A stretch of 64,000 bases of DNA from Deltaproteobacteria bacterium (GCA_015228875.1 JADGCS010000006.1:2611-66610); one strand, 5' to 3'; positions 2-46,413 are shown, counted from the first letter of the stretch. Program-made: numbers and translations. Notes: generated from the letters alone by a model not told the origin.

Positions 2-337
2 GGATGCGACATCTGTCAGGAGGTTTGTCCGCGCAACATCAGGGCCAGGGCCGGCAAAAATGTCCAGTGGCTCGAAGGATATGAAGAGACACACCTGGCG
101 GATATTGCCGGATTTCTTGAGCTTGACAAGGGTGGCTACCAGAAAAAATTCAAACACACCGCTATCAGCCGCGTGAAATATCAGGATTTTATGCGCAATG
201 TGTTTATTGTGATTGCCAATTTAAAAAGAAAAGATTTGATTGAACAGGTGAAGGCGTGGAAGATAAGAAACCCCCATGAGGGGCTTGCAGAACTGGAGTT
301 TTGTATTGGAGAACTCGAAAAAGAATATGAGGAGTGA
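2..337 (+). CDS. queG: epoxyqueuosine reductase, C-terminal part (gene starts before the window)
   Basis: Manual translation of frame +2 gives GCDICQEVCPRN...FKHTAISRVKYQDFMRNVFIVIAN, the second 4Fe-4S motif and C-terminus typical of QueG. TGA at 335-337. Confidence 0.8.
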   Translation, partial: GCDICQEVCPRNIRARAGKNVQWLEGYEETHLADIAGFLELDKGGYQKKFKHTAISRVKYQDFMRNVFIVIANLKRKDLIEQVKAWKIRNPHEGLAELEFCIGELEKEYEE

Positions 338-1188
338 TGATGTATAAATTGAAGTCTAGCAATTTCAAAGTTGACAGAGCGCGGGTGCATTCCTCGCAAA
401 ATGGAGGCATTCAATCGCGTCACAGTCAAGTGAGTAACTTGTATAGAACCTTGGAAGGTTTTTTCTACGCGTTTCGGCATCAATTTTTGCATGGTGTCCG
501 CCCGCGTAGTGTTTTCCGTTTTATGCGGGTTATGATTGTTGTGTGCCTCATGATGTTTGCCGTTATACCCGCCTGCCAGTCCGGGCGGGAACCCCTGCCG
601 GTGCTTGTCCCGCAGCAGATCGATGTGGCACAGGCATTACAGCGGGGTATTTTTAAACTTGTCATCGATGCCTCGATGATCAAGGTGAGGACAATCAAGG
701 ACAGCAGCATCCCCGTGGCCGCGAGTTTTTATTTTAATTCGGGGGCCTTAAATCTCAATCCCGGGCGGTCTTTTTTTAAAACCGAGATTGACATCACGAG
801 CTTTTATTCGGGACTCTCGGTGAGGGACGATAACGTGCTCAAGGTTTTCTTTAAGACGGACGAGACCCCAAACAAGGCTGCCTTTTTTTCTGTGGCAGGC
901 CTTGGGAAGGAAAAAACAGCAGGGTTAAAAACAGCGAAAAAACTGGACGAACTCTCTGTTGATGGGGTTCTCACATACAACCAGAAAGAGGTGATGGTTA
1001 AGGCAATCCTCAAGATCTCGTTTAACAAGTACGGGAGGCTTGTCGTTGAAACTGTCAAGCCGTTTGCAGTCAGCATTTCGGACCTTGGGTTAACCAAAAA
1101 TTTAAACGAGCTGCTGGTGGTCTGCAATCATCAATCCGTGGATGACGTGGTTCAGGTTGAAGTCCATATCGAATTTGAACCTGGGTGA
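337..1188 (+). CDS. YceI-like lipid/polyisoprenoid-binding lipoprotein with repeat A and repeat B inserted in frame in its N-terminus
   Basis: ATG 337 overlaps the queG stop (TGATG) and follows GAGGAG. Lipobox-like MIVVCLMMFAVIPAC. IDITSFYSG..VRDDNVLKVFF resembles YceI. Confidence 0.65.
   Translation: MMYKLKSSNFKVDRARVHSSQNGGIQSRHSQVSNLYRTLEGFFYAFRHQFLHGVRPRSVFRFMRVMIVVCLMMFAVIPACQSGREPLPVLVPQQIDVAQALQRGIFKLVIDASMIKVRTIKDSSIPVAASFYFNSGALNLNPGRSFFKTEIDITSFYSGLSVRDDNVLKVFFKTDETPNKAAFFSVAGLGKEKTAGLKTAKKLDELSVDGVLTYNQKEVMVKAILKISFNKYGRLVVETVKPFAVSISDLGLTKNLNELLVVCNHQSVDDVVQVEVHIEFEPG
353..442 (+). repeat. Repeat family A copy (87-bp unit), in frame within the CDS
   Basis: aatttcaaagttgacagagcgcgggtgcattcctcg...gtcaagtgagtaacttgt matches 8 other copies in the window. 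Confidence 0.95.
444..532 (+). repeat. Repeat family B copy (87-bp unit), in frame within the CDS
   Basis: tagaaccttggaaggttttttctacgcgtttcggcatcaatttttgcatgg...ttatgcgggtta matches copies at 9407, 23433, 35053, 55916 and 60296. Confidence 0.95.
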
Positions 1189-1949
1189 TGATAAAAAAAA
1201 TATTACATATATTATATCAGCCTTATAAATGGCTTGTGCTTCTTCCCTTTTTTGTTCTGGTGACAATCGGTTTGAGTTTTATTGCCTTAAGCACCATGGC
1301 GGTCTTTGGGCCCAAGCCCGGCGCGCTCTGCGGCGTGGTCTGGGCGCGTCTTAATGCGTGGATGACACCTGTGTGGGTCAGTGTCAGGGGGCGGGAGAAT
1401 GTCAATCCACAGCAATCTTACGTTATTGTCAGCAATCATCAGAGCATTTACGACATTTATTTGTTTTATGGCTGGATGGGCGTTGATTTTAAGTGGGTCA
1501 TGAAACAAGAGATCCGAAAAATCCCCTTTATCGGTATTTCCTGCGACAGGATCGGCAACATTTATATCGATCGCTCCAATACCGAGGCGGCTCTTAAGTC
1601 CCTCAACATGGCAAAGGAAAAAATAAAAGACGGGACCTCTGTCATGTTTTTTGCCGAGGGCACGCGTTCCAAAACAGGTGAGATTGGCCCTTTTAAAAAA
1701 GGGGCGTTTATGTTTGCAAGGGATCTTAATATTTCGATACTGCCGGTCACCGTCAGCGGCACATTCAAGATCATGCCGCCACACACCATGAATGTCTTTC
1801 CGGGCCACGCAAAGATGACGATTCACCCACCCGTTGATATCAACGCATGGAAGGACAGGGATATCAGTGAATTAATAAATTACGTGAGGGACATTATTGT
1901 GTCGGGATATAAAAAGGATACCATGGATGTGCGAAACTGTAGATCCTAA
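1185..1949 (+). CDS. plsC: 1-acyl-sn-glycerol-3-phosphate acyltransferase
   Basis: NHQSIYD and FAEGTRS acyltransferase motifs, N-terminal TM segment. Confidence 0.9.
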   Translation: MMIKKILHILYQPYKWLVLLPFFVLVTIGLSFIALSTMAVFGPKPGALCGVVWARLNAWMTPVWVSVRGRENVNPQQSYVIVSNHQSIYDIYLFYGWMGVDFKWVMKQEIRKIPFIGISCDRIGNIYIDRSNTEAALKSLNMAKEKIKDGTSVMFFAEGTRSKTGEIGPFKKGAFMFARDLNISILPVTVSGTFKIMPPHTMNVFPGHAKMTIHPPVDINAWKDRDISELINYVRDIIVSGYKKDTMDVRNCRS

Positions 1950-1990
1950 AAACGGCTATTGAACCGCCCTGTACTCTTTACTGCAGAATC

Positions 1991-2050
1991 CAGTGCTTCG
2001 ACAATTTAATAATTTTCTTTATTAGAAAATTATTAAACGCTCAGCACTAG
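1991..2050. repeat. Hairpin element between convergent genes; its ends resemble family E (agtgcttcga...ctcagcact); possible bidirectional terminator
   Basis: Outer stem agtgct/agcact and inner AT-rich stem tttaataattttct/agaaaattattaaa. Confidence 0.55.
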
Positions 2051-2055
2051 GTTAA

Positions 2056-3363
2056 TCAAAGGGAGTGTCTATTCCCCCCGTAGATCAACACATCAACCTT
2101 GTCCCTGCTTGTAAAGAGGTCGATGATTTCTTTGGTCCCGCGGAGTTTAAATCCGACCATGTCTGCCCGATACCCTTCTTTGATCATGCCGACTTTTTTC
2201 AATCCGATCGCATGGCACGCATTTGTTGTGATCATCGGCAGGAATTCGAACAGATTTGTCTTGGGATGTCTTTTTAAAAAAAGCCGGGTTTCCTGCAGAA
2301 AATTGAGTGTGCTGTTGCTGGCGATGCTGTCGGTCCCAAGGGCTATCGGGATTTTATTTTCTTTGTATTTTTTAAACGGAAATGAGTCATGCCCAAAAAA
2401 ATCAAAAGAGCCCGGGCAGTGCACGACACAGATGTTTGGCCACGTGGCCATGATTTTTATATCTTTGCTGTCTGTGTAATTTGCGTGGATGACGAGTGCG
2501 TGATGAAGGCTGTGTTTGTGATGGTGAATGAATTTAACAGCAGAGTCTGCTGCGTGCAGCGGGGATGTATGAATATCGGGCCTGAGGGCTGCAATAAAGA
2601 GCCACAGGGGGCCGGCGCGGTATTTAAAATAGTCACATTCCTCCCTTGATTCTGCAAGGTGCAGCGAGAGGGCCTTGTATTTTTTGCCAAGCACTGTTTT
2701 CAGCACCTCGGGTGACACGGCATGAACGGAATGCAGTGTCTGGTAAAAGGGGATCGGTGCATGCGTCAGGCTGTCCCTGATTTTACGCAATGCAAATTGA
2801 GACATCTCGGTTCTGGTCCCGACAACCTCTCCGAAGCCAATGACCCTGACCTGGACATCATTGTAGTAAGAGAGCGGTGTATCAAAACTGATGTGATCGA
2901 TGATTGTGGTACAGCCGGACAAAAGGTTGAGCCTTATGCCGGTGCGTATGGCATTCTTGACCTCTACTTTGCGTTGACCCTGTTTTTTTTCAAGGAGGGT
3001 TTTGATCCACGGTACAAATTTTTTTTCTTTGAGAGGACCAAGATTTGTGAGTTCGAGATGGCAGTGTGCATTGACAAAACCTGGGAGGAGCACGGTGTCT
3101 TTAAGCACTAAGCTGGGCGTGTCTACGCGTTTCGGCATCAATTTTTGCATGGCGCCCGCCCGCGTTGTGTTTTCAGCTTTATGCGGGTTAAGGATGCGCG
3201 CATGACTGAGCGCCTTTTTGGGGATGTGTTCTGAAATTTTTGTGATCACCCCGTTTTCAATGATGATCAGTGCCGGGCTGATTATTTTTGTATTTTCGAT
3301 TACGGCAGCAGAGGCGATGACCGCTATTTTTTTTTCCGCTTTATGCGGGTTATGAGATTTCAT
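2056..3363 (-). CDS. Amidohydrolase (probable aminodeoxyfutalosine deaminase) with an in-frame repeat B insertion
   Basis: LLPGFVNAHCHLE, HLAES and LGTDS metal-binding motifs; directly downstream of mqnC. Start placed at ATG 3363 (the ORF track gives 3393). Confidence 0.8.
   Translation of the reverse strand: MKSHNPHKAEKKIAVIASAAVIENTKIISPALIIIENGVITKISEHIPKKALSHARILNPHKAENTTRAGAMQKLMPKRVDTPSLVLKDTVLLPGFVNAHCHLELTNLGPLKEKKFVPWIKTLLEKKQGQRKVEVKNAIRTGIRLNLLSGCTTIIDHISFDTPLSYYNDVQVRVIGFGEVVGTRTEMSQFALRKIRDSLTHAPIPFYQTLHSVHAVSPEVLKTVLGKKYKALSLHLAESREECDYFKYRAGPLWLFIAALRPDIHTSPLHAADSAVKFIHHHKHSLHHALVIHANYTDSKDIKIMATWPNICVVHCPGSFDFFGHDSFPFKKYKENKIPIALGTDSIASNSTLNFLQETRLFLKRHPKTNLFEFLPMITTNACHAIGLKKVGMIKEGYRADMVGFKLRGTKEIIDLFTSRDKVDVLIYGGNRHSL
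3102..3190 (+). repeat. Repeat family B copy (left end diverged) inside the amidohydrolase, read on the minus strand as LNPHKAENTTRAGAMQKLMPKRVD
   Basis: 3122-3190 is near-identical to the B consensus (tctacgcgtttcggcatcaatttttgcatgg...ttatgcgggtta). Confidence 0.92.
3332..3354 (+). repeat. Right-end fragment of repeat B; contains the mqnC stop codon and encodes HNPHKAE in the amidohydrolase N-terminus
   Basis: ttttccgctttatgcgggttatg matches the B right end. Confidence 0.8.
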
Positions 3364-4435
3364 TATAAAAAGAATCCCGTTGATAAGGGACACACCCTGA
3401 TTTCTTTATGGCCCCTGCAAGATCCTCAGGTGTGAGATGCCCCGTGTTACTGCACCCTGCAAGACTGACCACATGCTCTTCGAGCATGACCGAACCGATA
3501 TCATCCGCCCCGTAGTGCAGGGCCATCTGCGCTGTTTTAATCCCCTGTGTGAGGCTGGATGCCTGAATGTGCTTAAAGTTGTCGAGGTAGAGACGGGCAA
3601 TGGAAATGAGTTTTAAATAATCATACGGTGTGGACAGGATGACGTCCTCGTTGTTTTTTAATCGCGGGTGAAGCGCCGTGTTTTCGGGCTGAAATGTCCA
3701 TGGTATAAACGAGATAAAACCCTGTGTCTTGTCCTGCAACTCCCTTAATTTTCTGAGATGTTCTATCCGGTCCGGCCACCTTTCGACATGACCCATCATC
3801 ATTGTCGCGGTGGTCTTTAAACCGAGTGTGTGGGCTGTCTGCATGACATCAAGCCACTGCGTGGCGGTACATTTGTTCATCGAGATGCGGTCGCGGATTT
3901 TGTCCACCAGTATTTCGGCCCCCCCGCCCGGGATGGAGGCAAGTCCCCTGTCCATCAGGCGATTAATGACCTCGCTGATACTTAAATGAGAGACCTGTGC
4001 TGCATGGTGAATCTCTGGAGGTGAAAAGGCGTGGATGTGAATTTTATGATGATTGTGAATATGCCCCACCAGGTTTTCCAGGTCGGTGATGGTGTAATCG
4101 GGGTGATTCCCTCCCTGCAACAGAACCCTTGTGCCCCCTTTTTTAAGGGTGTCCATGATTTTTTTGTCAATCGCCTCGTAAGATATTTCATAGGCCTCTT
4201 TGTGGCCCTTGGGTCTGTAAAATGCGCAGAAAAGGCATGTTGACTTGCAGATATTGGTGTAATTGATGTTCCGGTCGATCAGATAGGCAACACGGTTTTT
4301 GTTTTGCGCCCTGTTTTTTTTGTCGGCGTATCCTGCCAGTTTAAGGATGTCCCCGTTTTCTGCCAGGGCGAGTGCCTCGTCTTCGGAGAGGCGTCCTCCT
4401 GCATCTGCTTTAAAATAAATATTGTCCAATGACAT
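3350..4435 (-). CDS. mqnC: cyclic dehypoxanthinyl futalosine synthase (radical SAM)
   Basis: DRNINYTNICKSTCLFCAF (CxxxCxxC) and SIPGGGAEIL; next to mqnA. Confidence 0.9.
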   Translation of the reverse strand: MSLDNIYFKADAGGRLSEDEALALAENGDILKLAGYADKKNRAQNKNRVAYLIDRNINYTNICKSTCLFCAFYRPKGHKEAYEISYEAIDKKIMDTLKKGGTRVLLQGGNHPDYTITDLENLVGHIHNHHKIHIHAFSPPEIHHAAQVSHLSISEVINRLMDRGLASIPGGGAEILVDKIRDRISMNKCTATQWLDVMQTAHTLGLKTTATMMMGHVERWPDRIEHLRKLRELQDKTQGFISFIPWTFQPENTALHPRLKNNEDVILSTPYDYLKLISIARLYLDNFKHIQASSLTQGIKTAQMALHYGADDIGSVMLEEHVVSLAGCSNTGHLTPEDLAGAIKKSGCVPYQRDSFYNEIS

Positions 4436-4463
4436 GGCGGATAGCTTTGGGTTTTAAGAAGTA

Positions 4464-5225
4464 TCAGGCCACTTTTAATTTGCGCGGCTCGCTGTACTGG
4501 TACTCTTTAAGATAGTCCTTGTAGAGTCTTAACCCGTCTTTAATAGCGGGGGTGGGTTCGTAGATGATGCTGTTTGTCAGGTAGTCGTTGACCAAGCCCC
4601 TTTGCTCCTTGTTAAAGGTGGAGCTGATATGATCGATGTGGGCGAGGCCTGCTGTTTTTGCATTTTTTAAGACGGCGATTTCGGCAGGTGTCAATGCGCG
4701 TTGTGATGCCCACGAGGCGAACATAAAACCCGCGCCTGTGTTTTGTTTCCAGACCGAGCCGATATCCCAGAACTTGTAGGGGAGACTGCTGTTAATTTCT
4801 GAAAAGAGGACTTTGTCTCCAATCAAAAGTTGGGCATCTGCCATTTCACGGTTATCGTAATGAAAGAACTCAAGGTCATAGAGACTGACGCCGTAAAACT
4901 TTTTTAGAATTATTTTTGCAAGGTACACGGATGAGAGTGATTCTTTGTCCATGTATATAGATTGAATCTGGCTTAAGTTTTCGATGTAGGAGCGGGTGTA
5001 AAAACCCACACTGCCCACATCACCGTCACAGGCGATGATGCCGGCATCGGGGTGCATGCGCAATTTGTGTTTAATGATACTGTAAAGCGGGAGCAGGGCG
5101 CAGTCGACGGTGCCATTAAGCAGTGCCGCCGCAAGTTCTGAGGGATACATTTTGATGATCTGGTTATTCTCCAAAAAATAACTGAGCGGAAGAGCATTGA
5201 TATAAGGTACGATTCCAATCTTCAT
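4464..5225 (-). CDS. mqnA: chorismate dehydratase
   Basis: IGIVPYINALPL, IACDGDVGSV, SLSSVYLAKI and LLIGD motifs; futalosine cluster context. Confidence 0.85.
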   Translation of the reverse strand: MKIGIVPYINALPLSYFLENNQIIKMYPSELAAALLNGTVDCALLPLYSIIKHKLRMHPDAGIIACDGDVGSVGFYTRSYIENLSQIQSIYMDKESLSSVYLAKIILKKFYGVSLYDLEFFHYDNREMADAQLLIGDKVLFSEINSSLPYKFWDIGSVWKQNTGAGFMFASWASQRALTPAEIAVLKNAKTAGLAHIDHISSTFNKEQRGLVNDYLTNSIIYEPTPAIKDGLRLYKDYLKEYQYSEPRKLKVA

Positions 5226-5270
5226 AAGATTTCCTCCAAAAAAGTTTTTTATGATTAACCCTTACTCCAA

Positions 5271-5360
5271 TATCCAGGAATTTCAAAGTTGACAGAACGC
5301 GGGTGCAGTCCTCGCAAAATGAAGGAATTCAACCGCGTCAAAGTCAAGTTAGTAACTTGA
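5271..5360 (+). repeat. Repeat family A copy
   Basis: ggaatttcaaagttgacagaacgcgggtgcagtcctcg...gtcaagttagtaacttg. Confidence 0.95.
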
Positions 5361-5451
5361 AAAACTTATCGCCGTGCAGTTTAAAAAGTTGCCTGAAATT
5401 TTTGAGGTTTTGGTTAAACCATAACCTTTTGTGACTACTACAGTTTTTTAA

Positions 5452-5502
5452 TATTTCCGTCAATAAGTGGTACTTGGCTGGCAGGGCCTTGCAGAGAACG
5501 CC
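5452..5502 (+). repeat. 51-bp direct repeat, left of the TA module (partner at 6426-6476)
   Basis: tatttccgtcaataagtggtacttggctggcagggccttgcagagaacgcc; 47/51 identical to its partner by manual comparison. Confidence 0.85.
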
Positions 5503-5628
5503 TGTTTTCTGGCTGTGCCCATGAATATACAACCCAGGAGCGAGATTTATGGCAAGGTCTTCGAACATTTTATCTTTACAGAACTGAGTGCCTACAAATA
5601 TGTCGCTCACCCGTTAAATTTTTAACCC

Positions 5629-5658
5629 TTGAAAAATATAACAGTATTGTTATACAAT
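5629..5658 (+). promoter_or_regulatory. Putative sigma70 promoter with an operator palindrome for the TA operon
   Basis: TTGAAA (5629) to TACAAT (5653) with an 18-bp spacer. Inverted repeat TATAACA-gtat-TGTTATA at 5637-5654. ATG lies 4 nt after the -10 element and has no RBS. Confidence 0.6.
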
Positions 5659-5662
5659 AAGC

Positions 5663-5980
5663 ATGAAGACATTGATACTGCCGCAGGCCGCCAAGGCTGT
5701 TGAAAAAGAACCCTTTGAATTAAAGCAAAGCGTCTTTGGAGTCTTGGAGAGACTCTCTGACGGTGAAGAAATCGGGATGCCGTTATGCAGATCCCTTTCG
5801 ACAATAATGAGGGGATTGTATGAATTGCGGTTTTCATATCAAGCCGGCGAATATAGAGTTTTTTATTACATCAAGGTTGGAGAAGCCATTTATGTGGTTC
5901 ACGCGATGAAAAAGAAATCTCGAAAGATAGACACCAAAACGATCATGTTACTTAAAAACAGGATAAGGAGTCTGCCATGA
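5663..5980 (+). CDS. RelE/ParE-superfamily (HigB/Gp49-like) type II toxin
   Basis: GLYELRF...EYRVFY...YVVHAMKKKSRK; lies upstream of an HTH gene. Confidence 0.85.
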   Translation: MKTLILPQAAKAVEKEPFELKQSVFGVLERLSDGEEIGMPLCRSLSTIMRGLYELRFSYQAGEYRVFYYIKVGEAIYVVHAMKKKSRKIDTKTIMLLKNRIRSLP

Positions 5981-6276: not shown

Positions 6277-6282
6277 ATTAAA

Positions 6283-6426
6283 TGTCCATGGACTTTCAAA
6301 GTTGACAGAGCGCGGGCCATGTTCCGTACGGAACATGGCGGGTGCATTCCTCGAATAACGGAGGAACTCAATCGTGTCCCCCAAGGGGATTTCCTTCGGG
6401 GCATAAAAGTCAAGTTACTAACTTGT
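6283..6426 (+). repeat. Repeat family A, expanded copy with two inserted hairpins
   Basis: A core plus the palindrome gccatgttccgtacggaacatggc (6316-6339) and cccaaggggatttccttcggggc. Confidence 0.92.
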
Positions 6427-6476
6427 ATTTCCGTCAATAAGCGGTACTTTGCTGGCAGGGTTTTGCAGAGAACGCC
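6426..6476 (+). repeat. 51-bp direct repeat, right of the TA module
   Basis: tatttccgtcaataagcggtactttgctggcagggttttgcagagaacgcc. Confidence 0.85.
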
Positions 6477-6560
6477 CTTAAGGGCCACGTGGCAGGTCTT
6501 GCTTATGAATTCACATGCTGCTTAAGGATGACAATCAGGAAAATTTATTCGGGACATAAT

Positions 6561-8141: not shown

Positions 8142-8153
8142 GACGGCCCTTTG

Positions 8154-9407
8154 TTAATGGCACCCCCCAAGTGATTTAATCAAGCCCTTTGCGGTCTCGA
8201 CGTCTTCTTTATACTCGTCTGGTTTTCGTTTTACAAATTCGCAGTAAACATTTGCGGCCTCCGAGTTTTTTCCCGTCAATTGGTACATTTGACCGAGGAC
8301 AAAATAGGCGCGGTAGAAGGTGGCATCGAGCGTGATGGTTTTTTTGTACCACTCTGCGGCACTGCTGAAATTTTTAAGCTGCTGGTAGTTGTAGCCGATA
8401 TTAAATGTGGCCTCGGGGTAGTTGGGTTTGAGGGTCACCGCCGATTGATAGGCCCTGTTGGATTCTTGATAGGCCTCGTGCGATTGCGCGCTGCTGCCTT
8501 TTTCACTGAGCATGCTGGCGAGCTTGTAATAAGAGTATCCAATATTAAAATAGGCAAGTTCATTTGTGGGATCATCGATAATCACCTTGTTGAATTCATT
8601 GATGGCCATTGTGATGTTGTCATCCTTTAAATAATTGAGACCCATGTTAAGATGGGCGTGCGACGAATCGGGGTTGGCGACAATGGAATGGTTGAGGGCC
8701 TGCTGCGCCTTAAGCGTTTGTCCGGTCTTTGTATAAAGCTCTGCAAGGTTGTTCCATGCCTCTGCGAGGTTGGGGTCGATTTCGAGCGCCAGCTTGTAAC
8801 GGATGATGGCCTTTTCGTATTCACCCAGCCTGTGATACGCCATACCAAGTTGCATGTGTGCGTAAGGGTGGTCGCTGTTGATCTGTGTGGCTTTAACAAA
8901 ACACGCGGCGGCATCACTTAAGTGATCGAGGTTTTTGTCCTGCTTGTACAGATCCACATGGACAAGCCCTGCATTGTAATGCGCATCGGAGTATTTGTTG
9001 TTGTATTTTAAGGCCAGACCAAACTGTCTGAGCGCTTCTTTGTGATTTTTTAATTTAAGATAAACAATCCCAAGATGATTGTATGTTGATGGAAATTTTT
9101 TATCGAGACTGATGGCCCTTTTGAGAACAACGATGGCATCGTCAAAGCGTCCCTTGTGCTTGTAGGCAAGACCAAGGTTGCTTAAGGCCTCGACATATTT
9201 TGGGTTGAGCTCTGTGGCGATTTTAAATTCAAAGATCGCCCTGTCGATGTCCCCCTGATAGAGGGCTGTGACCCCCTTGTTGTTGTGCTGCACGGCCCTG
9301 TCCGAGGGTTTCTCCGCCTTTTTTGCAGAGACAGCATGAGGGATCAGGCATAGGATTAAAAACAACAGGGTCAGCATGGCGGCGGTTTTGTTATTTATGG
9401 TGTGCAT
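8154..9407 (-). CDS. Secreted TPR protein
   Basis: Signal peptide followed by about 10 TPRs. The first 16 aa of the listed ORF come from repeat B, so the start is placed at ATG 9407. Confidence 0.85.
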   Translation of the reverse strand: MHTINNKTAAMLTLLFLILCLIPHAVSAKKAEKPSDRAVQHNNKGVTALYQGDIDRAIFEFKIATELNPKYVEALSNLGLAYKHKGRFDDAIVVLKRAISLDKKFPSTYNHLGIVYLKLKNHKEALRQFGLALKYNNKYSDAHYNAGLVHVDLYKQDKNLDHLSDAAACFVKATQINSDHPYAHMQLGMAYHRLGEYEKAIIRYKLALEIDPNLAEAWNNLAELYTKTGQTLKAQQALNHSIVANPDSSHAHLNMGLNYLKDDNITMAINEFNKVIIDDPTNELAYFNIGYSYYKLASMLSEKGSSAQSHEAYQESNRAYQSAVTLKPNYPEATFNIGYNYQQLKNFSSAAEWYKKTITLDATFYRAYFVLGQMYQLTGKNSEAANVYCEFVKRKPDEYKEDVETAKGLIKSLGGCH

Positions 9408-9495
9408 AGAACCTTGGAAGGTTTTTTCTACGCGTTTCGGCATCAATTTTTGCATGGTGTCCGCCCGCGTAGTGTCTTCCGCTTTATGCGGGTTA
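9407..9495 (+). repeat. Repeat family B copy (intergenic)
   Basis: Full 87-bp TA-to-TA unit. Confidence 0.95.
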
Positions 9496-9500
9496 TGGAT

Positions 9501-20706: not shown

Positions 20707-20711
20707 AACTG

Positions 20712-20865
20712 AGTGTCTGTCGGGAAAGCCCCTGTTTCGCAGGAGTCCTTAAAAATCATGTCCCGTGGAAAAATATACGGACATGATTTTTAAGGGTTTG
20801 AAATATTTTGCAAGCGGCAAAATTTTCAAACTTCCGGAGAAACAGGGGCTTTCCCGATAGACACT
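20712..20865 (-). mobile_element. Family C MITE-like element (inverted relative to the copies at 38893 and 44261)
   Basis: 27-bp TIRs agtgtctgtcgggaaagcccctgtttc / gaaacaggggctttcccgatagacact and two internal hairpins. Confidence 0.85.
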
Positions 20866-23242: not shown

Positions 23243-23270
23243 AGATCCCCCCCGTGCAGGCGCCCCTTGA

Positions 23271-23386
23271 TGTATAGGCATTTCAAAGTCGACAGGGCGC
23301 GGGTGCATTCCTCGCAGAATGGAGAAATTCAATCGCGTACCCCAAGGGCATTTCCTTCGGGCATCAAAGTCAAGTTAGTAACTTGT
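23271..23386 (+). repeat. Repeat family A, expanded copy (26-bp hairpin insert shared with the 6283 copy)
   Basis: A core plus cccaagggcatttccttcgggca. Confidence 0.93.
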
Positions 23387-23432: not shown

Positions 23433-23521
23433 TAGAACCTTGGAAGGTTTTTTTTACGCGTTTCGGCATCAATTTTTGCATGGTGTCCGCCCGCGTAGTA
23501 TTTTCAGCTTTATGCGGGTTA
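23433..23521 (+). repeat. Repeat family B copy
   Basis: Full 87-bp TA-to-TA unit. Confidence 0.95.
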
Positions 23522-23553
23522 TGTGATTGTGACAGCACGGTTGTTGTGAGTTG

Positions 23554-27365: not shown

Positions 27366-27416
27366 ACGTCATAAATCAACGTAATTGTGCAAAAACTGAC
27401 GTCAGTTTTAATTTAA

Positions 27417-27506
27417 TGCATAGGAATTTCAAAGTCGACAGAGCGCGGGTGCATATCTCGCAAGATGGAGGCATTCAACCGCGTCATAGTCAAGTTAGTA
27501 ACTTGT
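27417..27506 (+). repeat. Repeat family A copy
   Basis: Full 87-bp unit. Confidence 0.95.
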
Positions 27507-33690: not shown

Positions 33691-35055
33691 ATGAAACCAA
33701 TCATGTACTATTCAACAAATTTAAAAACAAAACCCGTCACTTTTAAAGACGCACTGATCAAGGGGCTTGCCCCTGACAAGGGGCTTTTTATGCCGGAGAA
33801 AATCCCTGAAATCTCCCGGGATGAACTCGTCTCGTTCCCGCAGATGCCGTATCACGAGATTGCCTATGCCATTGCCAATAAATTTCTTGAAGGCGAGATC
33901 CCCGCCCAAAAATTAAAAGATCTTATCAGTGACGCCTACAATTACGAGGTGCCACTCCAAAATGTCTATGACAGGAAATACGTGATGAGACTCGATCAGG
34001 GGCCAACAGCGTCCTTTAAGGATTTTGCGGCACGGCAGATGGCGCGGCTCATGCAGTTTTATCTTGGCGAAGAAAAAAGGGAGCTCCTGATACTCACCGC
34101 CACATCAGGCGATACGGGGAGTGCCATTGCCAATGCCTTTTATGGGCTCGATAACATCAAGATTGTTGTTCTCTTTCCCTTGCATGAAGTGACCAGCCGT
34201 CAGAGAAAACAGATGACCACTCTGGGGAGAAACGTGCGGATCATGGCGCTTGATGCCAAGTTTGATGACTGTCAGGCCCTTGTCAAAAGGGCGTTTACGG
34301 ACAGTGACCTCGATCATCTTAAACTCTCTTCGGCAAATTCCATCAATATTGGCAGACTCCTGCCGCAGACGATGTATTATTTTTACGCGTATGCAAAGCT
34401 CACACGTTCGGTTGACGAACAGATCATCTTTTCTGTTCCGTCGGGCAATTTTGGAGACATGATGGGCGGGCTGATCGCGATGCGCATGGGGCTCCCGGTC
34501 AAGCGGTTTGTGATTGCGACCAACTCAAACGATGAGTTTCCAGAATTTTTAAGTTCGGGCCGGTATGAAAAAATAGTCCCTTCAAAAAATTGTATTTCAT
34601 CCGCGATGAACGTGGGACACCCGAGCAATCTTTCCCGCGTTGTTGCGCTGTATGGCGGGGTGATGGATGAGACGGGGCTTGTGACAAAAATGCCCGATCT
34701 CAAACAGATGAACCGGGACATGCACGCGGTCAGCATTTCGGAGGCCGAGACAAAAAACGCCATCAAAGAGGCCTATGCAAAGCACAAACTCATCCTCGAA
34801 CCGCACGGTGCGGTCGCGTGGGCGGCCCTGCAGCAATACATTAACGACAGCGGGCAAAACACCCCGGACCAACTCATGGTCTCGCTCGAAACCGCCCACC
34901 CCGCAAAGTTTCCCGAAGAGATCAGGGAGATCCTTTCAATCGAGCCCAACCTGCCGCAGAGTCTCGAGGGCATCGAGGCCAAAGAAGAGTCTTTTATGCA
35001 GCTGGAAAATAATTATGAAGTTTTTAAGAGGCACCTGCTTCAAAATTATGGTTAA
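33691..35055 (+). CDS. thrC: threonine synthase
   Basis: GLAPDKGLF, GPTASFKDF, ATSGDTG, VPSGNFG and TAHPAKF. Confidence 0.95.
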   Translation: MKPIMYYSTNLKTKPVTFKDALIKGLAPDKGLFMPEKIPEISRDELVSFPQMPYHEIAYAIANKFLEGEIPAQKLKDLISDAYNYEVPLQNVYDRKYVMRLDQGPTASFKDFAARQMARLMQFYLGEEKRELLILTATSGDTGSAIANAFYGLDNIKIVVLFPLHEVTSRQRKQMTTLGRNVRIMALDAKFDDCQALVKRAFTDSDLDHLKLSSANSINIGRLLPQTMYYFYAYAKLTRSVDEQIIFSVPSGNFGDMMGGLIAMRMGLPVKRFVIATNSNDEFPEFLSSGRYEKIVPSKNCISSAMNVGHPSNLSRVVALYGGVMDETGLVTKMPDLKQMNRDMHAVSISEAETKNAIKEAYAKHKLILEPHGAVAWAALQQYINDSGQNTPDQLMVSLETAHPAKFPEEIREILSIEPNLPQSLEGIEAKEESFMQLENNYEVFKRHLLQNYG

Positions 35056-35190
35056 AACCTTAGAAGGTTTTTTCGACGCGTTTTTGCATCAATATTTTAC
35101 AAGGTGCCAGCCCGCGTAGGATCCGGCGCATAGCGCCAAACATGAAACCCTTCATGTTTGATCGCAATGCACTCCGCTTTATGCGGGTTA
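35053..35190 (+). repeat. Repeat family B long form containing module M
   Basis: Diverged B ends with ggcgcatagcgccaaacatgaaacccttcatgtttgatcgcaatgcac inserted. Confidence 0.9.
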
Positions 35191-35212
35191 TGGTTTAACG
35201 TGAGGAAAAAAA

Positions 35213-36418: not shown

Positions 36419-36433
36419 TGCGTTTTTTCAGGG

Positions 36434-37141: not shown

Positions 37142-37156
37142 ACCGTGCGCGTTATT

Positions 37157-38851: not shown

Positions 38852-38892
38852 GATTTTTGCATGACTATTCAACCAAAATAAGATATCGGGTT

Positions 38893-39044
38893 GGGGCCTG
38901 TCGGACAGCACCTGTTTCTCCGGAAGTTTGAAAATTTTGCCGCTTGCAAAATATTTCAAACCCTGAAAAATCATGTCTTTACATTTTGTCACGGGACATG
39001 ATTTTTCAGGACTCCTCCGAAACAGGTTCTGTCCGACAGGCCCC
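38893..39044 (+). mobile_element. Family C MITE-like element
   Basis: TIR ggggcctgtcggacagcacctgtttc / gaaacaggttctgtccgacaggcccc; interior almost identical to the 44261 copy. Confidence 0.88.
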
Positions 39045-39086
39045 TAGCTTAGTCCAGGCCCGCCAATCATATAAAATAAAAAAGGG

Positions 39087-40625: not shown

Positions 40626-40790
40626 AGGGACAACCTTTCAGCCCCAAGCCTAATCAGTCCTAAAACGAAACAGCTTGAGGTTCTTTTTCACCGGGCCTGT
40701 TTTAATCAGGTGTTTGTCCGGCAGTCAAATGCAAAAAAATATTGCATTGAAGATTATCGACGAAGGTTTTATGACGCACGAGAATGAAGG

Positions 40791-40880
40791 ACAAGTTACT
40801 AACTTGACTTTGACGCGGTTGAGTCCCCCCGTTGTGCGAGGAATGCACCCGCGCTCTGTCAATTTTAAAATTCCTATACA
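40791..40880 (-). repeat. Repeat family A copy
   Basis: Reverse-complement full 87-bp unit. Confidence 0.95.
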
Positions 40881-40889
40881 CGGACTTAT

Positions 40890-42137
40890 ATGCCCCTCGA
40901 CACACTTTATTCAGAGCAGACAATAAAAATTAAAGACACAGTCAAAGATTTTGTCTCTGCAGTCCCCAAAAAACTCCTGCTTGATATGGACGCCGAAAGA
41001 ATCAATTACCCGCGCGACTACCTCGAAGAGGCGGGCAGGCGAGGCATTCTGGGACTTCGCTTTGACAAAGAGTGGGGCGGAAAAAATATGGGCTGGACCA
41101 CAGAACTCGCGGCCCTTGAAGAAGTGGGCGTGCTCGGGACATCCCTGGCATGCCTGTATTCACTTGTCTCGATTGTTGGTGAGGCCATTCATTGTTTTGG
41201 CACACACGAGCAAAAGAAAAAATACTTAAGGCCCATGATCATGGGCAAGCTCGCGCCGGCAGAGGCTTTGACCGAGCCGCGGGGCGGGTCTGATTTTTTT
41301 GGGGCGACCACAGTGGCCACGCGCAAGGGCGATCTGTTTTATCTTAATGGTCAAAAGCGCTTTGTTGTTGGTTCTGAAGGCGCCGATCTTTTTTTGGTCT
41401 ACGCACGTGTTGAGGGCATAGATGACCCGCACAAGGCGATGACGGCCTTTCTGGTAGAGCGTTCCGACACGGTCGAGGTGAAGCACGTCTACGGATTGAT
41501 GGGGACGCGCGGTGGCGGCACAGGGCGTCTTGTCTTTCGTGATACCCCTGTGCCCATTTCAAATGTGTTGGGCGAGGAAAGCGGTATTGGCCGTGGTTCC
41601 GATGTCTTTCATCAAATGATGGTCCCGGAGCGGATGACGTCCGCCGGAGGGGCCGTGGGCATGGGCAGGGCGGCCATTGAAGTCGCTGCCCGCTATGCCG
41701 ACAGACGCAAGGCCTTTGGGCAGAAGATCAGGCGCTTTGAGGCCGTGAGTTTTAAAATAGCGGAGAGCCTGACACTGCTTGATGCGGCACGCTCCCTTAA
41801 TTATACGGTTGGTCGGGCCTGCGAAACAGGCGGCTCTACGGGCAAGATCAGGCGCCTGGTGAGCGAGGCAAAAAAGTTTTCCACCGAGACCGCGTGGACT
41901 GTAGTCAATCACGCCATGCAGGTCATGGGCGGGATTGGTTACACCAATGTGTTTCCGATCGAGCGCATGCTCAGAGACGTGAGGCTCATCACCATCTGGA
42001 CCGGCACCAACGAGATCATGAATCAGGTGATTCAACACGAATACTACAAAGAGTTTTCAGGCACGCCACTTAAGGGGCGTGATACCGAAATGGACGCGGA
42101 AGGCTCTGATCTTGAAGGTGAAAAAATTTATGAGTGA
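40890..42137 (+). CDS. acyl-CoA dehydrogenase
   Basis: [25 protein letters not shown] and IWTGTNEI. Confidence 0.93.
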
Positions 42138-42349
42138 ATCACAGGGAGAAAACCATGTACATGGAAGATTATATCAGGGTCATTGCGGGTTTTTTTATTT
42201 TACTGTCAACAGCGCTGGGATACTGGTACAGCCCTTACTGGTTCTTGTTTACAGCGTTTGTTGGTGTTAACCTGATTCAGTCAGCATTTACAAAGTGGTG
42301 CCTGATGGAGACCTTACTCAAAAAACTTAAGGTGCCCACACGGTCGTGA
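42134..42349 (+). CDS. DUF2892/YgaP-like small membrane protein
   Basis: IRVIAG...[15 protein letters not shown]; start is probably 42155. Confidence 0.8.
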
Positions 42350-42675
42350 TCATGGGGTTTATGGTCAAAAAAAATCAAGAGGAGGTGTCTGTGCCCACAG
42401 GCAAAATTTCGCTTACGTTGCACGAAAAAGAGCAATTTGAGTCCCAGACAGTCATGCTTTCGGGACACGGTTATGTGAGGTGTGTGTTTAAAAAATGTAC
42501 CGTTGTGGTGACCAACTCGCCCTTGATGATCAAACACTGCCAGTTTTATAACTGCAACTGGCGTTTCGAATACGACGTCCTGTGGGGCAATCGGGGTCAC
42601 ACCAAGCTGCTTAAAGAGATTATCGCGATGATCGAAGGGGGCACTGTCAAGGATGTTTCATCCGTTGTCCATTAA
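42346..42675 (+). CDS. hypothetical protein
   Basis: ORF in operon context; F..QTV.L.G..YVRCVFKKC pattern. Confidence 0.6.
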   Translation: MIMGFMVKKNQEEVSVPTGKISLTLHEKEQFESQTVMLSGHGYVRCVFKKCTVVVTNSPLMIKHCQFYNCNWRFEYDVLWGNRGHTKLLKEIIAMIEGGTVKDVSSVVH

Positions 42676-42679
42676 TATT

Positions 42680-44206
42680 ATGAATGCCATAGTGAGGTTC
42701 AAAAAAGTTCTAATGTCTAGGAATTTTAAAGTTGACAGAGCGCGGGTGCATGCCTCGCATAACGGAGGAATTCGACCGCGTAAGAGTCAAGTTAGTAACT
42801 TGTTGCTCACCCTGTCTCTGGCAATATTGCTACAGGGTTTCTTTGTTGATGCCTTTGCCTTCGAAGGGGAGAGTCCTGCCTTAAAAGAAAAATGGCAGAT
42901 AGGCGTTGACGCGATCATGCAACCCGCGATCGAGGCAAAAAGGCTTGTCGGTGCCGTTGTGGGGATCATCACACCCGAGGGGATGGCCGTGTACGGGTAT
43001 GGGGCTACAAAACTTAATGGCAAAGATGTCCCTGATGGCGATACCGTTTTTTACATCGCGTCAATTACAAAGACGGTTACGTCCCTTGTCCTTGCACAGA
43101 TGGCTGAAAATAAAGACCTTAAACTCACCGACCCCGTGGCAAAATTTTTGCCGCAGGGTGTGACAGTTCCTCATTACAAAGGCAGGGAGATCACACTACT
43201 TGATTTATCAACACACCATTCGGGATTGCCCTTGATGCCGTCAAACTTTGATCTTTCAAATCCCGTAAAGTCCTTCAAGGCTTATGATACAAAAATGCTT
43301 TATGATTTTTTATCGGACCACAAACTCAAATACATGCCAGGGACACGGTACGAGTACAGCAATTTGGGAGCAGGGCTTTTGGGGCACGTGCTTTCGCTTA
43401 AAAGCGGCAAAACCTACGAGGATCTTGTGACCGATCTTGTGCTTAAACCCCTTAAAATGCACGACACAGGGCAATCACGCAATAAGATCAAAAACACACT
43501 CGTCACAGGTTACGACTGGGACCTGCAAAAAAGGGTGCCTTGGCCGGATAAGGTGATCCTCGAAGGCGCGGGGGCCCTCTATTCAACGGCGCATGACATG
43601 TTAAGATATCTTGGCGCCAACATGGGATTCATTGATTCCCCACTGGGCAAGGCCATGCAGATCACGCATGTGCCGAAAAAAAAGGCCCAAGCAAAATCCA
43701 TCGGTCTCGGGTGGTTTATCAGCGATCATCAGGGACAGACGCTTGTCTGGCACAATGGGGACACACCGAGTTGCAGTTCTTGGGCGGGTTTTATCAAATC
43801 AAAAAACACTGGTGTGGTTGTCCTTGCCAATACATCGACACTCTTTAACGGGATTATTGATGATGCGGGCCTTAACGTGGTGAGTCTGCTGCTTGGACGA
43901 TCCTACAAACCCTTTATATTTCCGGAAGAGGTAAAGATAAAATCGGGATTGTTAAAGGAGTACTCAGGCGAGTACAGGTCGCAGGACGCGAAAAAGACCG
44001 TGCAGATCAAACCACAGGCAGGCGGGCTGTGGGTGGTGTTTTCAAAAAATGAGAGCATCAGGTTTTATGCCGCATCAGAGACCTCATTTTTTTCCAAGCT
44101 CAATCTGACAAACCTTGTCTTTAAAAGAGACAACCTTGGGACCGTCTCCCGTTTAATTTTTAACACTTATGATGGCGACGAAGCAGAATACCGGAGAGCA
44201 AGATAA
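42680..44206 (+). CDS. Class C beta-lactamase-like serine hydrolase with repeat A inserted in frame in the signal peptide
   Basis: SITK, YSN and WHNG motifs; signal peptide ends AFA. Confidence 0.88.
   Translation: MNAIVRFKKVLMSRNFKVDRARVHASHNGGIRPRKSQVSNLLLTLSLAILLQGFFVDAFAFEGESPALKEKWQIGVDAIMQPAIEAKRLVGAVVGIITPEGMAVYGYGATKLNGKDVPDGDTVFYIASITKTVTSLVLAQMAENKDLKLTDPVAKFLPQGVTVPHYKGREITLLDLSTHHSGLPLMPSNFDLSNPVKSFKAYDTKMLYDFLSDHKLKYMPGTRYEYSNLGAGLLGHVLSLKSGKTYEDLVTDLVLKPLKMHDTGQSRNKIKNTLVTGYDWDLQKRVPWPDKVILEGAGALYSTAHDMLRYLGANMGFIDSPLGKAMQITHVPKKKAQAKSIGLGWFISDHQGQTLVWHNGDTPSCSSWAGFIKSKNTGVVVLANTSTLFNGIIDDAGLNVVSLLLGRSYKPFIFPEEVKIKSGLLKEYSGEYRSQDAKKTVQIKPQAGGLWVVFSKNESIRFYAASETSFFSKLNLTNLVFKRDNLGTVSRLIFNTYDGDEAEYRRAR
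42714..42803 (+). repeat. Repeat family A copy, in frame within the CDS
   Basis: TGT to TGT distance is 87 bp. Confidence 0.95.
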
Positions 44207-44260
44207 AAGAGGGCATCAGCGTTTTACGAGGGGCCAGACCGCGTTGTTATCTGCTATCGC

Positions 44261-44418
44261 CTAGGAGCCTGTCGGACAACTCCTGTTTCTCCGGAAGTTT
44301 GAAAATTTTGCCGCTTGCAAAATATTTCAAACCCTGAAAAATCATGTCTTTACGTTTTGTCACGGGACATGATTTTTCAGGACTCCTCCGAAACAGGAGT
44401 TGTCCGACAGGCTCCTAG
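44261..44418 (+). mobile_element. Family C MITE-like element bounded by CTAG
   Basis: Perfect 29-bp IR ctaggagcctgtcggacaactcctgtttc / gaaacaggagttgtccgacaggctcctag. Confidence 0.9.
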
Positions 44419-44424
44419 GGCGGT

Positions 44425-46413
44425 TCAATTGCTTTTTTTGGGTTCGAGCATTTCCAGAATCTGCTGTATCTTCTTTTTTGTCTCGGGGTTGTTGGGGTTG
44501 ATTTCGAGTGCGTGATTAAAATCGTCAAGGGCCTCTTTGGGTCTTTTAAGACGCAGAAGGGCCCCGCCTCTCTTTATATAACTGTCTTCGTGATTTGGGT
44601 TGGCAATCACATAACGGCTTAAATCTGTGATGGCGTTTTGGAAATCCAGGATGCCGAGGTAAGTCATGGCCCTGTTGTAAAAAGGGGGCGTAAAGTTTGG
44701 ATCCAACTGTATGGCTGTAGTGAAATCAGTGATGGCAGATTGAAACTGTTTGAGTCTTCTCAAGACATTCCCCCTGTTGTTGTAGCCCTTGGCGTGCGCA
44801 GGTTGCATCGAGAGGAGCGTGTTGTAATCGTTAAGGGCCTCTACGTTTTTATTGAGGGCGTAATGGGTGGTCCCCCTGTTGAAGTAAGCCTTTGCAAGTT
44901 GCGGATTTATTTTTATGGCCTCTGTATAATCCTGAACGGCTTCATCATATTTGCCCTGCATGTGAAACACAGCACCCCTGTTAAGACGGGCGAATTCGTT
45001 CTCAGGTCTGAGTGTCACAGCCTTGTTAAGATCGTTGAGGGCCTCGTTGAGCCGGCCCATCTCAATCAGCTCTTTGCCCCTGTTGTTGTAGGCCCTGCCC
45101 TCGGACTGTGTTATTGCAATGCAGTGATCCCACAAGCTGAGGTTGGTTTTCCATACCGGAACCTGCACCAGGGAAGTTCTCAGTGCCAACAGGCCAATTA
45201 CCAACACAGGGATGGACCAGACTGCTTGTTTGTTGATGTGCCTTACCATACAGGAAAGAAATAAAGAGATGCCCGCCATTGAAAAATAAAAGTAGCGGTC
45301 GGCCACTGTAGACCACTCTTGAAATCCAAAGATTACAAGACCCGAGACGGGCAAAAACCCAGCCACAATCATTGTGAGGGCTGTCAGAAACCAGGGCTGC
45401 TTTTTTCTCAATAAAAGGGCCGCTGTGCCAAACAGCACGGGGATCACCCACTCGATAAAGAACCACCATTCCAAAATGAGCGTGTGTGGCTTTCGTGCAT
45501 AGGTTGCGGCAAGTGTGAGCGGGTTGATGACCTTTAAGAGATAAAAATTCACGGCGTCCATAAAGATCAACGGCCGCGCCCACAGTGGGCTTTGCACCTG
45601 AATGGCTACATCAGGTTGATTTAAGTTTGTGGTGATGAGTACAGGGACAAGAATGATAACAAAGGGGAGGGTCTTGATGAGGGATTTTTTAAAACCACTG
45701 CAAAGGACCACAAAAAAAATGACAAACACCGTCAGGGGCAGGCCCGCCATGATGGGTTTTGAGAGGATTGCAGGGATAAAGACCGCGAGGGCCACAACGT
45801 AGCTGGCCTTGGTATTTTTTACCAGGAGGTTGACCAGAATCAGTCCAAAGAATGTCCCTGTCAGTCCTCCGAGATTTGAAACATAACAGACAGCCTCTGT
45901 CTGCAGCGGGTGGACAAGAAACAACAGCGTGCCAAAGAGCGCGGCCCCCTTGTGTCTTGTCATGCGAAATAGAAAACAGAAGAGCAGCAGTCCGTTTGAT
46001 ATGTGAATGCCCAGATTAAACAGGTGAAAATAAAACGGATCATATGTCCCACCGCCGAGCATCTTAAGGAGATACCAGATGAGATAGGGGACAAACATAA
46101 ACATGTCTGTCGTGGCTGCCTGAGAGATATTACTGACCGACAGTTGACTGATGTTAAAATTTTCAAAGAACCGCCACGGGTCATCCCAGACAAACTCAAA
46201 AGCCATGGTTTGTCCAAAGACAGCGAGGGGGAGCAGGATCAACGTGATCAGACATAACCAGTTGGTTGGCGATTGTAAAAAACAAGTTACTAACCTGACT
46301 GTGACGCGGTTGCATTCCGCCGTCTTGCGAGGAATGCACCCGCGCTCTGTCGACTTTGAAATTTCTATACATCCAGTTGCCGGGGGTGAGGGGGTTATAG
46401 ATTTATGCTCCAT
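44425..46413 (-). CDS. TMTC-like glycosyltransferase-TPR protein with repeat A in frame near the N-terminus
   Basis: FVWDD, HLFNLGIH, HPLQTEAV and ADRYFY motifs; about 6 TPRs. Confidence 0.85.
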   Translation of the reverse strand: MEHKSITPSPPATGCIEISKSTERGCIPRKTAECNRVTVRLVTCFLQSPTNWLCLITLILLPLAVFGQTMAFEFVWDDPWRFFENFNISQLSVSNISQAATTDMFMFVPYLIWYLLKMLGGGTYDPFYFHLFNLGIHISNGLLLFCFLFRMTRHKGAALFGTLLFLVHPLQTEAVCYVSNLGGLTGTFFGLILVNLLVKNTKASYVVALAVFIPAILSKPIMAGLPLTVFVIFFVVLCSGFKKSLIKTLPFVIILVPVLITTNLNQPDVAIQVQSPLWARPLIFMDAVNFYLLKVINPLTLAATYARKPHTLILEWWFFIEWVIPVLFGTAALLLRKKQPWFLTALTMIVAGFLPVSGLVIFGFQEWSTVADRYFYFSMAGISLFLSCMVRHINKQAVWSIPVLVIGLLALRTSLVQVPVWKTNLSLWDHCIAITQSEGRAYNNRGKELIEMGRLNEALNDLNKAVTLRPENEFARLNRGAVFHMQGKYDEAVQDYTEAIKINPQLAKAYFNRGTTHYALNKNVEALNDYNTLLSMQPAHAKGYNNRGNVLRRLKQFQSAITDFTTAIQLDPNFTPPFYNRAMTYLGILDFQNAITDLSRYVIANPNHEDSYIKRGGALLRLKRPKEALDDFNHALEINPNNPETKKKIQQILEMLEPKKSN
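46282..46371 (-). repeat. Repeat family A copy, in frame within the CDS
   Basis: 87-bp unit translated as IEISKSTERGCIPRKTAECNRVTVRLVTC. Confidence 0.95.

Follow-up and report, generated by a model that had tools for sequence, protein, structure and literature searches.

The stretch of DNA considered here, 64,000 nucleotides (nt) of the draft genome of a Deltaproteobacteria bacterium (GCA_015228875.1, JADGCS010000006.1:2611-66610) and referred to throughout as the window, carries copies of two families of small repeats, A and B, some of which lie in frame within protein-coding genes. Both families had been reported in an initial annotation made from the sequence alone, and both are present where it placed them: repeat finding on the window recovered them at the expected sites, together with several composite forms, and profile searches with nhmmer gave nine matches to A and seven to B. 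Four genes are concerned, coding for an amidohydrolase, a membrane protein with TPR motifs, a lipoprotein and a protein of the beta-lactamase family, and the in-frame location of the elements in all four was confirmed.

Elements within four genes of the window

The amidohydrolase gene (2056-3393, minus strand) holds a copy of B (3105-3191, plus strand, 87 nt, with a diverged left end) that is in frame and antisense. The insert is internal; the Amidohydro_1 domain of Pfam begins at residue 101. In 4/4 orthologues from genomes of the same family, the segments that match either side of the insert are adjacent, and in an alignment of 55 rows none of the 54 homologues fills the columns of query residues 54-73, the gap measuring 29 residues. 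Removing the 87 nt in silico brings the spacing to that of the orthologues. When that alignment was used for AlphaFold2 modelling, the mean predicted local distance difference test (pLDDT) score was 92.3, with residues 51-80 scoring 46-69 and displaying no secondary structure. The gene adjoins an MqnA-like gene (4464-5225, minus strand), and source databases name some of its homologues aminodeoxyfutalosine deaminase.

The TPR membrane protein (TMTC/PMT-like; 44425-46413, minus strand) has a copy of A (46283-46372, minus strand, 90 nt, frame +1) in its N-terminal tail. All eight homologues that were fetched display a short N-terminal tail, a first membrane helix and then a conserved F-V-W-D-D motif, and in the window this helix comes directly after the A copy. 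There is no in-frame ATG, GTG or TTG between A and the helix, nor within A in that frame, so that the start at 46413 must be used, with A read in its second open frame. Judging from this arrangement of codons, A would have to be translated for the conserved first helix to be kept. The database call of the protein, 593 amino acids (aa) that begin past the helix, is probably too short.

In the two remaining genes the elements lie within signal peptides. The lipoprotein gene (frame 337-1188) has a GAGGAG box 3-6 nt upstream of two ATGs (337 and 340), followed in frame by a copy of A (352-441, plus strand, 90 nt, frame +0) and, 5 nt past it, by a copy of B (447-533, plus strand, 87 nt), the final two bases of which form, with the flanking G, an in-frame ATG. 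Once A and B are deleted in silico, the frame begins with a standard lipoprotein signal, in which the start is basic, the core hydrophobic and residue 21 a cysteine; in the sole homologue found (56% identity) the cysteine is residue 20. The labels initially given to the genes are loose, as this one illustrates: the 284-aa frame 334-1188 has no Pfam match at E<=0.001, yet the database call, shorter than the frame, bears a precomputed PF04264 (YceI) tag. The beta-lactamase-family gene (42653/42680-44206), where the Pfam domain extends from residue 85, carries a copy of A in its signal peptide (42713-42802, plus strand, 90 nt, frame +0); without this copy the sequence reads as a Sec signal of standard type, composed of basic n-region, hydrophobic core and A-x-A site. 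That the elements of these two genes stand in frame inside ancestral coding sequence is, as far as sequence features tell, well supported; the present translation start could lie further downstream. No orthologue close enough to reveal an empty site was found in 12 relatives for the beta-lactamase-like gene or for the TPR membrane protein.

It might be thought that every N-terminal case is a spurious extension of a frame, with true starts downstream of every element. We rejected this view: the amidohydrolase insert is internal, and no start codon separates A from the helix of the TPR membrane protein. It holds for the flagellin-family gene, the Pfam domain of which begins at frame residue 35 and upstream of which lies an intergenic copy of A (23270-23385, plus strand) of 116 nt, not a multiple of three (3n), with one 26-nt module. 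It probably also holds for a gene (8154-9407, minus strand) that encodes a secreted TPR protein, where a copy of B (9410-9496, plus strand, 87 nt) stands 2 nt upstream of the likely ATG: an ATG within B stretches the open frame to 9455, and a signal-like start is found directly past B. In both, the frames that run into elements are probably extensions and not coding. The 212-aa database call of the lipoprotein gene loses most of its signal peptide, and the 593-aa call loses the conserved first membrane helix. Gene calling that is blind to repeats probably mis-starts genes in this genome.

The other copies of the window are intergenic or adjoin gene ends. Copies of A of 90 nt lie upstream of the MqnA-like gene (5270-5359, plus strand), between genes at 27416-27505 (plus strand), and upstream of an acyl-CoA dehydrogenase gene, 8 nt from its ATG (40792-40881, minus strand; gene 40890-42137); an intergenic one of 144 nt (6282-6425, plus strand) contains two nested hairpin modules. 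As for B, an intergenic copy of 87 nt is at 23436-23522 (plus strand), and one of 136 nt, not 3n and with an internal module of ~48 nt, lies directly after the TAA stop (35053-35055) of thrC (35056-35191, plus strand). Another, of 135 nt with a 48-nt module, is intergenic, 29 nt upstream of the frame 56078-58183 (55915-56049, minus strand). Finally, a composite B of 163 nt (60299-60461, plus strand) has split a copy of A at its 5' TAG^G site, 82 nt of that copy remaining beyond it (60462-60543, plus strand, intergenic). The five genic copies of the window are all exactly 90 or 87 nt long; the composites of 116, 136 and 163 nt are intergenic. In the whole genome 15/140 copies of B, that of thrC included, have on their 5' side a TAG or TAA that terminates a frame of 100 codons or more.

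Copy number, unit size and sites of insertion

The source genome, assembled as a draft of 4.58 Mb in 228 contigs, is 94.8% complete and has 47% G+C. It exceeds in size all 40 sampled relatives (1.6-3.7 Mb), is the sole member of its genus, and harbours at least six families of small dispersed repeats. BLASTN with one copy of A gave 403 matches there, and with one copy of B 220; nhmmer profiles, built from 280 long A and 124 long B genome matches, gave 417 and 212. With hundreds of matches to each family, chance is ruled out. Extension to the model ends left 346 full-length copies of A, with 258 of the basic length, 34 longer by 27 nt and 18 longer by 26 nt, and 140 of B, with 87 of the basic length and 41 longer by one nucleotide. 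Three of the six frames of A are free of stop codons (+0, +1 and -0), in keeping with the initial annotation, which had counted at least three, and so are three of the six of B (+1, +2 and -2). The median identity to the consensus is 0.911 for A and 0.977 for B, genic and other copies being equally diverged; with a median of 97.7%, B is a young family.

In the searches made here, neither family was met outside the source genome. No Rfam family matched in the window at gathering thresholds. A DNA search found A in 0/40 relatives, and B in 0/40 save for one 24-nt match at chance level; exact-pattern scans of genome and metagenome contigs, which by design exclude records of the source genome, returned no match to A or B outside the source genome among the stretches listed. 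The suggestion that these elements are probably undescribed agrees with these results, with the proviso that intragenic repeats of the repetitive extragenic palindrome (REP) type have been published beyond Rickettsia (PMC3733652).

To measure the units, we joined the flanks of each copy and searched the genome for uninterrupted versions. Copies of A at C193:16003 and at the same site of C4:12576 sit inside another dispersed repeat of ~145 nt, of which dozens of empty copies exist in the genome. The insert is a 90-nt block, from ATG to a final CTTG, between TTT and TGT, with a single possible placement and no duplication. The copy of B at C93:4549, which belongs to the longer subfamily, sits inside a fourth repeat family; its insert, 88 nt from AACC to GGGTTAT, comes after TAG and before G, again with a single placement and no duplication. 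Since 88 nt is the measure of the longer subfamily, the main subfamily of B is 87 nt long. Thus A is a unit of 90 nt, or 30 codons, and B one of 87 nt, or 29 codons, in its main subfamily and of 88 nt in the second. Both units had been taken to be 87 bp. For A the spacing from TGT to TGT is indeed 87 nt, but empty sites, the gap in uvrB described below and the period of tandem copies all give an insert of 90 nt; for B the figure suits 87 copies of 140, the 41 that are 88 nt long falling outside it.

Nested copies tell the same story. B stands within A at the TAG^G of the 5' end of A, with 15 left and 14 right junctions, and was once inserted into the 3' hairpin of A. At the common site, 0 junctions of the kind expected from a TA duplication were found, against 14 without duplication. 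Seven A-A tandem junctions have a start-to-start period of ~90 nt. In flank logos of full copies, A is preceded by T (.89), T (.76) and any base, and B by T (.80), A (.84) and G (.76), with G (.94) after it. The targets are therefore TTN for A and TAG for B, the element being placed 3' of its target, and neither family makes a target-site duplication. The terminal TGT and TA are not duplications, as empty sites and nested junctions show that none is made.

Over the genome as a whole, we counted a copy as genic if its frame was free of stops for 40 codons or more ahead of the element and for 60 or more past it. This gave 45 genic copies among the 346 of A and 30 among the 140 of B. Twenty top-ranked candidate regions were fetched and 18 scanned with Pfam, the two longest (L049 and L053) being omitted; 14/18 host frames matched families at E<=1e-5. 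The hosts include UvrB, IspG/GcpE, NAD synthase (NadE), a Ser/Thr kinase, a radical-SAM enzyme, an AAA ATPase, an ArsP permease, a PLD protein and a spermine synthase, and the inserts in these Pfam-matched hosts are mostly between domains. In uvrB the two sides of the insert abut in 8/8 relatives, and an alignment with five relatives displays exactly 30 extra residues between two invariant blocks. Here, as in the amidohydrolase (4/4 orthologues and 54/54 homologues), relatives are devoid of the insert.

Genic copies are confined to the open frames of each element, bar one in another frame per family. For A there are 24 same-sense in +0, five same-sense in +1 and 15 antisense in -0; for B, 21 antisense in -2, six same-sense in +2 and two same-sense in +1. 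That the length of the elements is a multiple of three stands for the main subfamilies, the minor ones not being 3n. An enrichment of 3n lengths in coding sequence had been put forward as a check, and it is borne out: coding-like flanks, each open over 100 codons or more on the same strand, belong to 57/389 of the 3n copies and to 6/97 of the others (pooled Fisher p=0.027). A and B are, at the same time, strongly depleted from coding sequence, as judged with a crude gene set that covers 88.5% of the genome. In-frame genic copies and empty orthologous sites agree with the proposal that this lineage carries an independent set of coding-tolerant miniature elements that behave like Rickettsia palindromic elements (RPEs).

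Proposed single-strand transposition and its alternatives

Folded as single-stranded DNA, B makes three hairpins (z=-4.8; 0/200 shuffles as stable), and A two, one of which is imperfect and central and the other terminal (z=-2.25). For the consensus, minimum-free-energy structures were used, the default RNAalifold consensus being uninformative, and the excess of compensatory cells in them, which may reflect subfamily structure, carries no weight. No long terminal inverted repeats (~15-30 bp) were found in the folds of A and B, where pairing is internal, with small terminal hairpins.

The two families are also biased in orientation. The target-bearing strand is the locally G-rich one for 191/253 copies of A (191:62, p=2e-16) and for 68/109 copies of B (68:41, p=0.012). 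The bias of A is 49:20 between divergent or convergent genes, 12:4 in genes that oppose the skew (lagging strand) and 17:12 between tandem genes opposing it. Insertion sequences (ISs) of the IS200/IS605 family place their left end 3' of a sequence of four or five nucleotides and prefer the lagging-strand template (PMC5027513). The insertion of A and B 3' of their targets and, with GC skew as a proxy, their orientation fit these rules.

Ten Y1 HUH proteins are encoded in the genome, and three of them were scanned against NCBIfam cut-offs. One, at C188, is a clear IS200/IS605 TnpA (138.5 bits vs a cut-off of 55). Three are short, and the one that was scanned (C151) scores about at the cut-off; five are long RAYT-like proteins with a DnaA-C-like tail, the scanned one (C143) reaching 46.4 vs the NCBIfam RayT cut-off of 80; RAYT-like proteins are also encoded at C21, C200 and C191. 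The last, at C101 (248 aa), is an atypical, weak match of 28 bits. Two IS91-type (Y2) fragments at contig ends and one IS110-type gene complete the set, and no TnpB (PF07282) was found in the genome. These genes are flanked by other repeat families, with incidental whole copies of A or B near them at C91 and C116. The remark that no mobilizing enzyme is visible in the window extends to the draft genome, where the search for an HUH, RAYT or IS gene flanked by the ends of A or B was negative.

Several of these other repeats deserve a mention. A repeat of ~22 copies, present as an 86-nt pair in the window (50991-51076 and 53118-53203), lies directly upstream of a short Y1 (IS200-like) gene at C102. 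A hairpin-rich repeat of ~100 nt and ~12 copies (as at C188:13683-13784) begins with ATG after a TT-rich flank, one copy lying ~220 nt upstream of the sole clear IS200/IS605 tnpA of the genome. The long RAYT-like gene C143:45033-46194 is bracketed by inverted repeats of ~30-40 nt that occur ~45 times in the genome, an arrangement termed "TIRtron" in PMC3733652. The ~145-nt repeat that hosts the empty-site insertions of A has at least 40 copies, found in the window at 38884-39047, 44255-44418 and ~20711-20853; the fourth repeat, which hosts B, often terminates contigs, so that it may be the end of a longer element.

We propose, with a probability of about 0.6, that A and B are unrelated, non-autonomous, hairpin-rich selfish elements moved in trans by Y1 HUH single-strand transposition and tolerated in genes. 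Insertion 3' of a short target, lack of duplication and a replication-strand bias together point to transposition of this type. The two families would have been amplified within one genome, each element joining as an exact block 3' of its TTN or TAG, without duplication, with the target-bearing strand favoured on the G-rich, leading-sequence strand. A Y1 HUH enzyme, either an IS200/IS605 TnpA or a RAYT-like relative, would move them in trans by "peel-and-paste" transposition; its class and its action in trans are what we infer, given that no HUH gene has the ends of A or B nearby. Owing to its 3n length and three open frames, a copy inserted where a gene is tolerant (in a loop, an inter-domain linker, an N-terminal tail or the n-region of a signal peptide) would add a loop of 29-30 residues, probably translated, disordered and tolerated, and would survive, insertions elsewhere being purged.

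A number of observations weigh against this proposal. Within 2 kb of the 10 Y1, two Y2 and one IS110-type genes there are no termini of A or B, and neither an autonomous parent with such ends nor separated half-copies of one were found in a draft that is 94.8% complete and split into 228 contigs. The left hairpin of B begins at its first base and the right hairpin of A ends at its last. The layout of IS608-type ends includes a guide sequence, and hairpins flush with the ends leave no room there for one. The TTN target of A is very loose for an HUH cleavage site, and there is just one independent paralogous empty site per family. The strand test takes the G-rich strand to be the leading one in a draft of 228 contigs and is partly confounded with gene orientation. 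The 3n enrichment is modest, with p=0.09 for each family alone and significance only when pooled. Finally, the database calls of two of the four window genes (lipoprotein, 212 aa; TPR membrane protein, 593 aa) start downstream of the elements.

Among other explanations, the nearest holds that A and B belong to the GTAG-tagged REP super-family and do not derive from an IS200/IS605 element; they would be REPs or REPINs that a domesticated RAYT maintains and disperses, this RAYT being single-copy, inherited vertically and in long-term association with them. The class of enzyme would be the same as in our proposal; the family and the biology would differ. B does have two inward-facing, inverted GTAG motifs, with a small hairpin within a few bases of either one, and the genome has the five long RAYT-like genes. 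In PMC3733652, GTAG/CGTC-tagged REPs are described as sometimes intragenic, many of them in replication or repair genes, with termini that supply TAG stop codons; here uvrB is hit, and the 15/140 copies of B with a TAG or TAA flank that stops a long frame are of the same vein. Yet the GTAGs of B are base-paired together instead of making unpaired tags, A has none, and the units measure 87-90 nt and not 20-40. The RAYT-like genes are flanked by other repeats, none by A or B, and the long protein that was scanned falls below the RayT cut-off. Moreover, the repeats are carried by 0/40 relatives, and B is young. We regard this explanation as unlikely.

More improbable still, A and B would be classical MITEs (miniature transposable elements with inverted repeats), deletion derivatives of an IS with a DDE transposase moved by cut-and-paste, with TA (for B) and TGT (for A) as target-site duplications. 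Size and copy number fit, most copies are flanked by TA or TGT at a spacing of 87 nt, and one junction of the TA-duplication type exists. Against this, all exact pairs of empty and filled sites give a unique placement without duplication, and the TA model, besides predicting the junction seen 0 times vs 14, needs the same G-to-T change at every nested site. Furthermore, uvrB gains exactly 30 codons between contiguous flanks, the long terminal inverted repeats are missing from elements where pairing is internal, and the strand bias is not expected under a DDE mechanism.

No easier to accept is the idea that the repeats serve the host, as terminators, RNA stabilizers, translation-start cassettes or a useful peptide module. 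It would account for the short hairpin followed by a T-run that opens B, for the conserved ATG at the first base of A and the one that B forms with its flank, and for the numerous copies that adjoin gene starts or stops. It is countered by host genes unrelated in function, by an encoded peptide that varies with orientation and frame, by the insert of the amidohydrolase being modelled as disordered, by relatives that live without the repeats, and by copies nested in one another and in other repeats. Lastly, spread without transposition, through recombination, gene conversion or hairpin-primed replication errors, is scarcely credible: slippage could make tandem copies and nested 27-nt modules, and no cognate enzyme was found, but against it speak hundreds of dispersed copies that share their exact ends and have defined short targets amid unrelated flanks, some being inserted precisely into conserved genes.

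Single-strand transposition might also reach one level below A and B. A has a hairpin module of 26-27 nt inserted behind CGCGT, and B has this module in reverse complement; it is sometimes in tandem (window 6282-6425 and 23270-23385); it occurs 97 times in the genome, always in A- or B-like sequence (63 in A, six in B, 28 in degenerate copies), and may itself be a tiny mobile unit. Within B, a hairpin module of ~48 nt (35056-35191, 55915-56049 and 60299-60461) makes a variant of ~135 nt, its core being found 55 times genome-wide, and another variant has the same ends with its centre replaced. We put forward quite tentatively, as a conjecture that may well fail, that A, B and the 27-nt module nested in both form a hierarchy of Y1 HUH-driven "peel-and-paste" elements, shaped by 3n length, three open frames and a built-in ATG for life in coding sequence, signal peptides included. 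If true, the module would be one of the smallest mobile DNA units seen, and the hierarchy would supply a mechanism for the "coding palindromes" of the Rickettsia type, for which the available part of a review (PMC10969869) gives none.

Should our proposal hold, selfish palindromic DNA in protein-coding genes would have its second clear case here, in a bacterium that is unrelated to Rickettsia and apparently free-living. Signal peptides and uvrB, with their insertions, would then be ready-made experiments on the tolerance of essential proteins and export signals to foreign peptides. As gene callers probably mis-start genes around the elements, the annotation of this lineage needs a repeat-aware pass.

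Comparison with known systems

Classical MITEs (Correia/NEMIS, RUP, ERIC) are in the same range of size, have no transposase and occasionally make in-frame fusions with host genes, as reported in PMC10969869; the terminal inverted repeats and target-site duplications that define them were not found in A or B. The REP/REPIN-RAYT systems have in common with A and B hairpin repeats linked to Y1 HUH enzymes, some of them intragenic, in mosaic or nested arrangements. A and B differ in being two to four times longer, in flanking no RAYT-like gene and in being confined to one genome among those searched. An unpaired GTAG tag at the end of a palindrome of 20-40 nt is absent from both, A having none and B two that are internal and paired, and in this genome no RAYT gene is flanked by copies of A or B in the manner of a REPtron.

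A and B also resemble IS200/IS605 elements and the palindrome-associated transposable elements (PATEs), which make no duplication, have no terminal inverted repeats and join their left end 3' of a short sequence. Hairpins at the ends and a bias of the lagging-strand-template type are also shared, and a TnpA of this family is encoded in the genome. Of five features counted, A and B display three, among them insertion 3' of a short target without duplication and a bias in orientation. They differ by the lack of a resident IS with their ends, ends common to a resident TnpA-encoding IS being absent from the 94.8% complete draft, by the lack of a TnpB gene, by hairpins that are terminal and not subterminal, and, in the case of A, by a target with just two fixed bases.

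In behaviour A and B match the RPEs, of which ten, RPE-1 to RPE-10, have been described (Ogata et al. 2000, 2002; summarized in PMC10969869), in-frame palindromic repeats as such being already known. Both sets are short, palindromic, dispersed repeats in many copies, a sizeable share of which lie in frame in unrelated housekeeping genes, with a conserved peptide per family and insertions that seem compatible with the fold and function of the protein. RPEs are larger (~150 bp vs 87-90 nt) and, in some families, nearly half genic, vs 13-21% of the copies of A and B. The host is here an uncultured, free-living-type bacterium of 4.6 Mb, some homologous proteins bearing "Deltaproteobacteria" or "bacterium" in their source names, and the sequences are probably unrelated. 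A further difference is one of legibility: the absence of duplication, the placement 3' of the target and the strand bias can be read here, where a young family B and many exact empty sites make the chemistry of insertion more accessible than in Rickettsia, and where a concrete class of enzyme is offered that is easier to put to the test.

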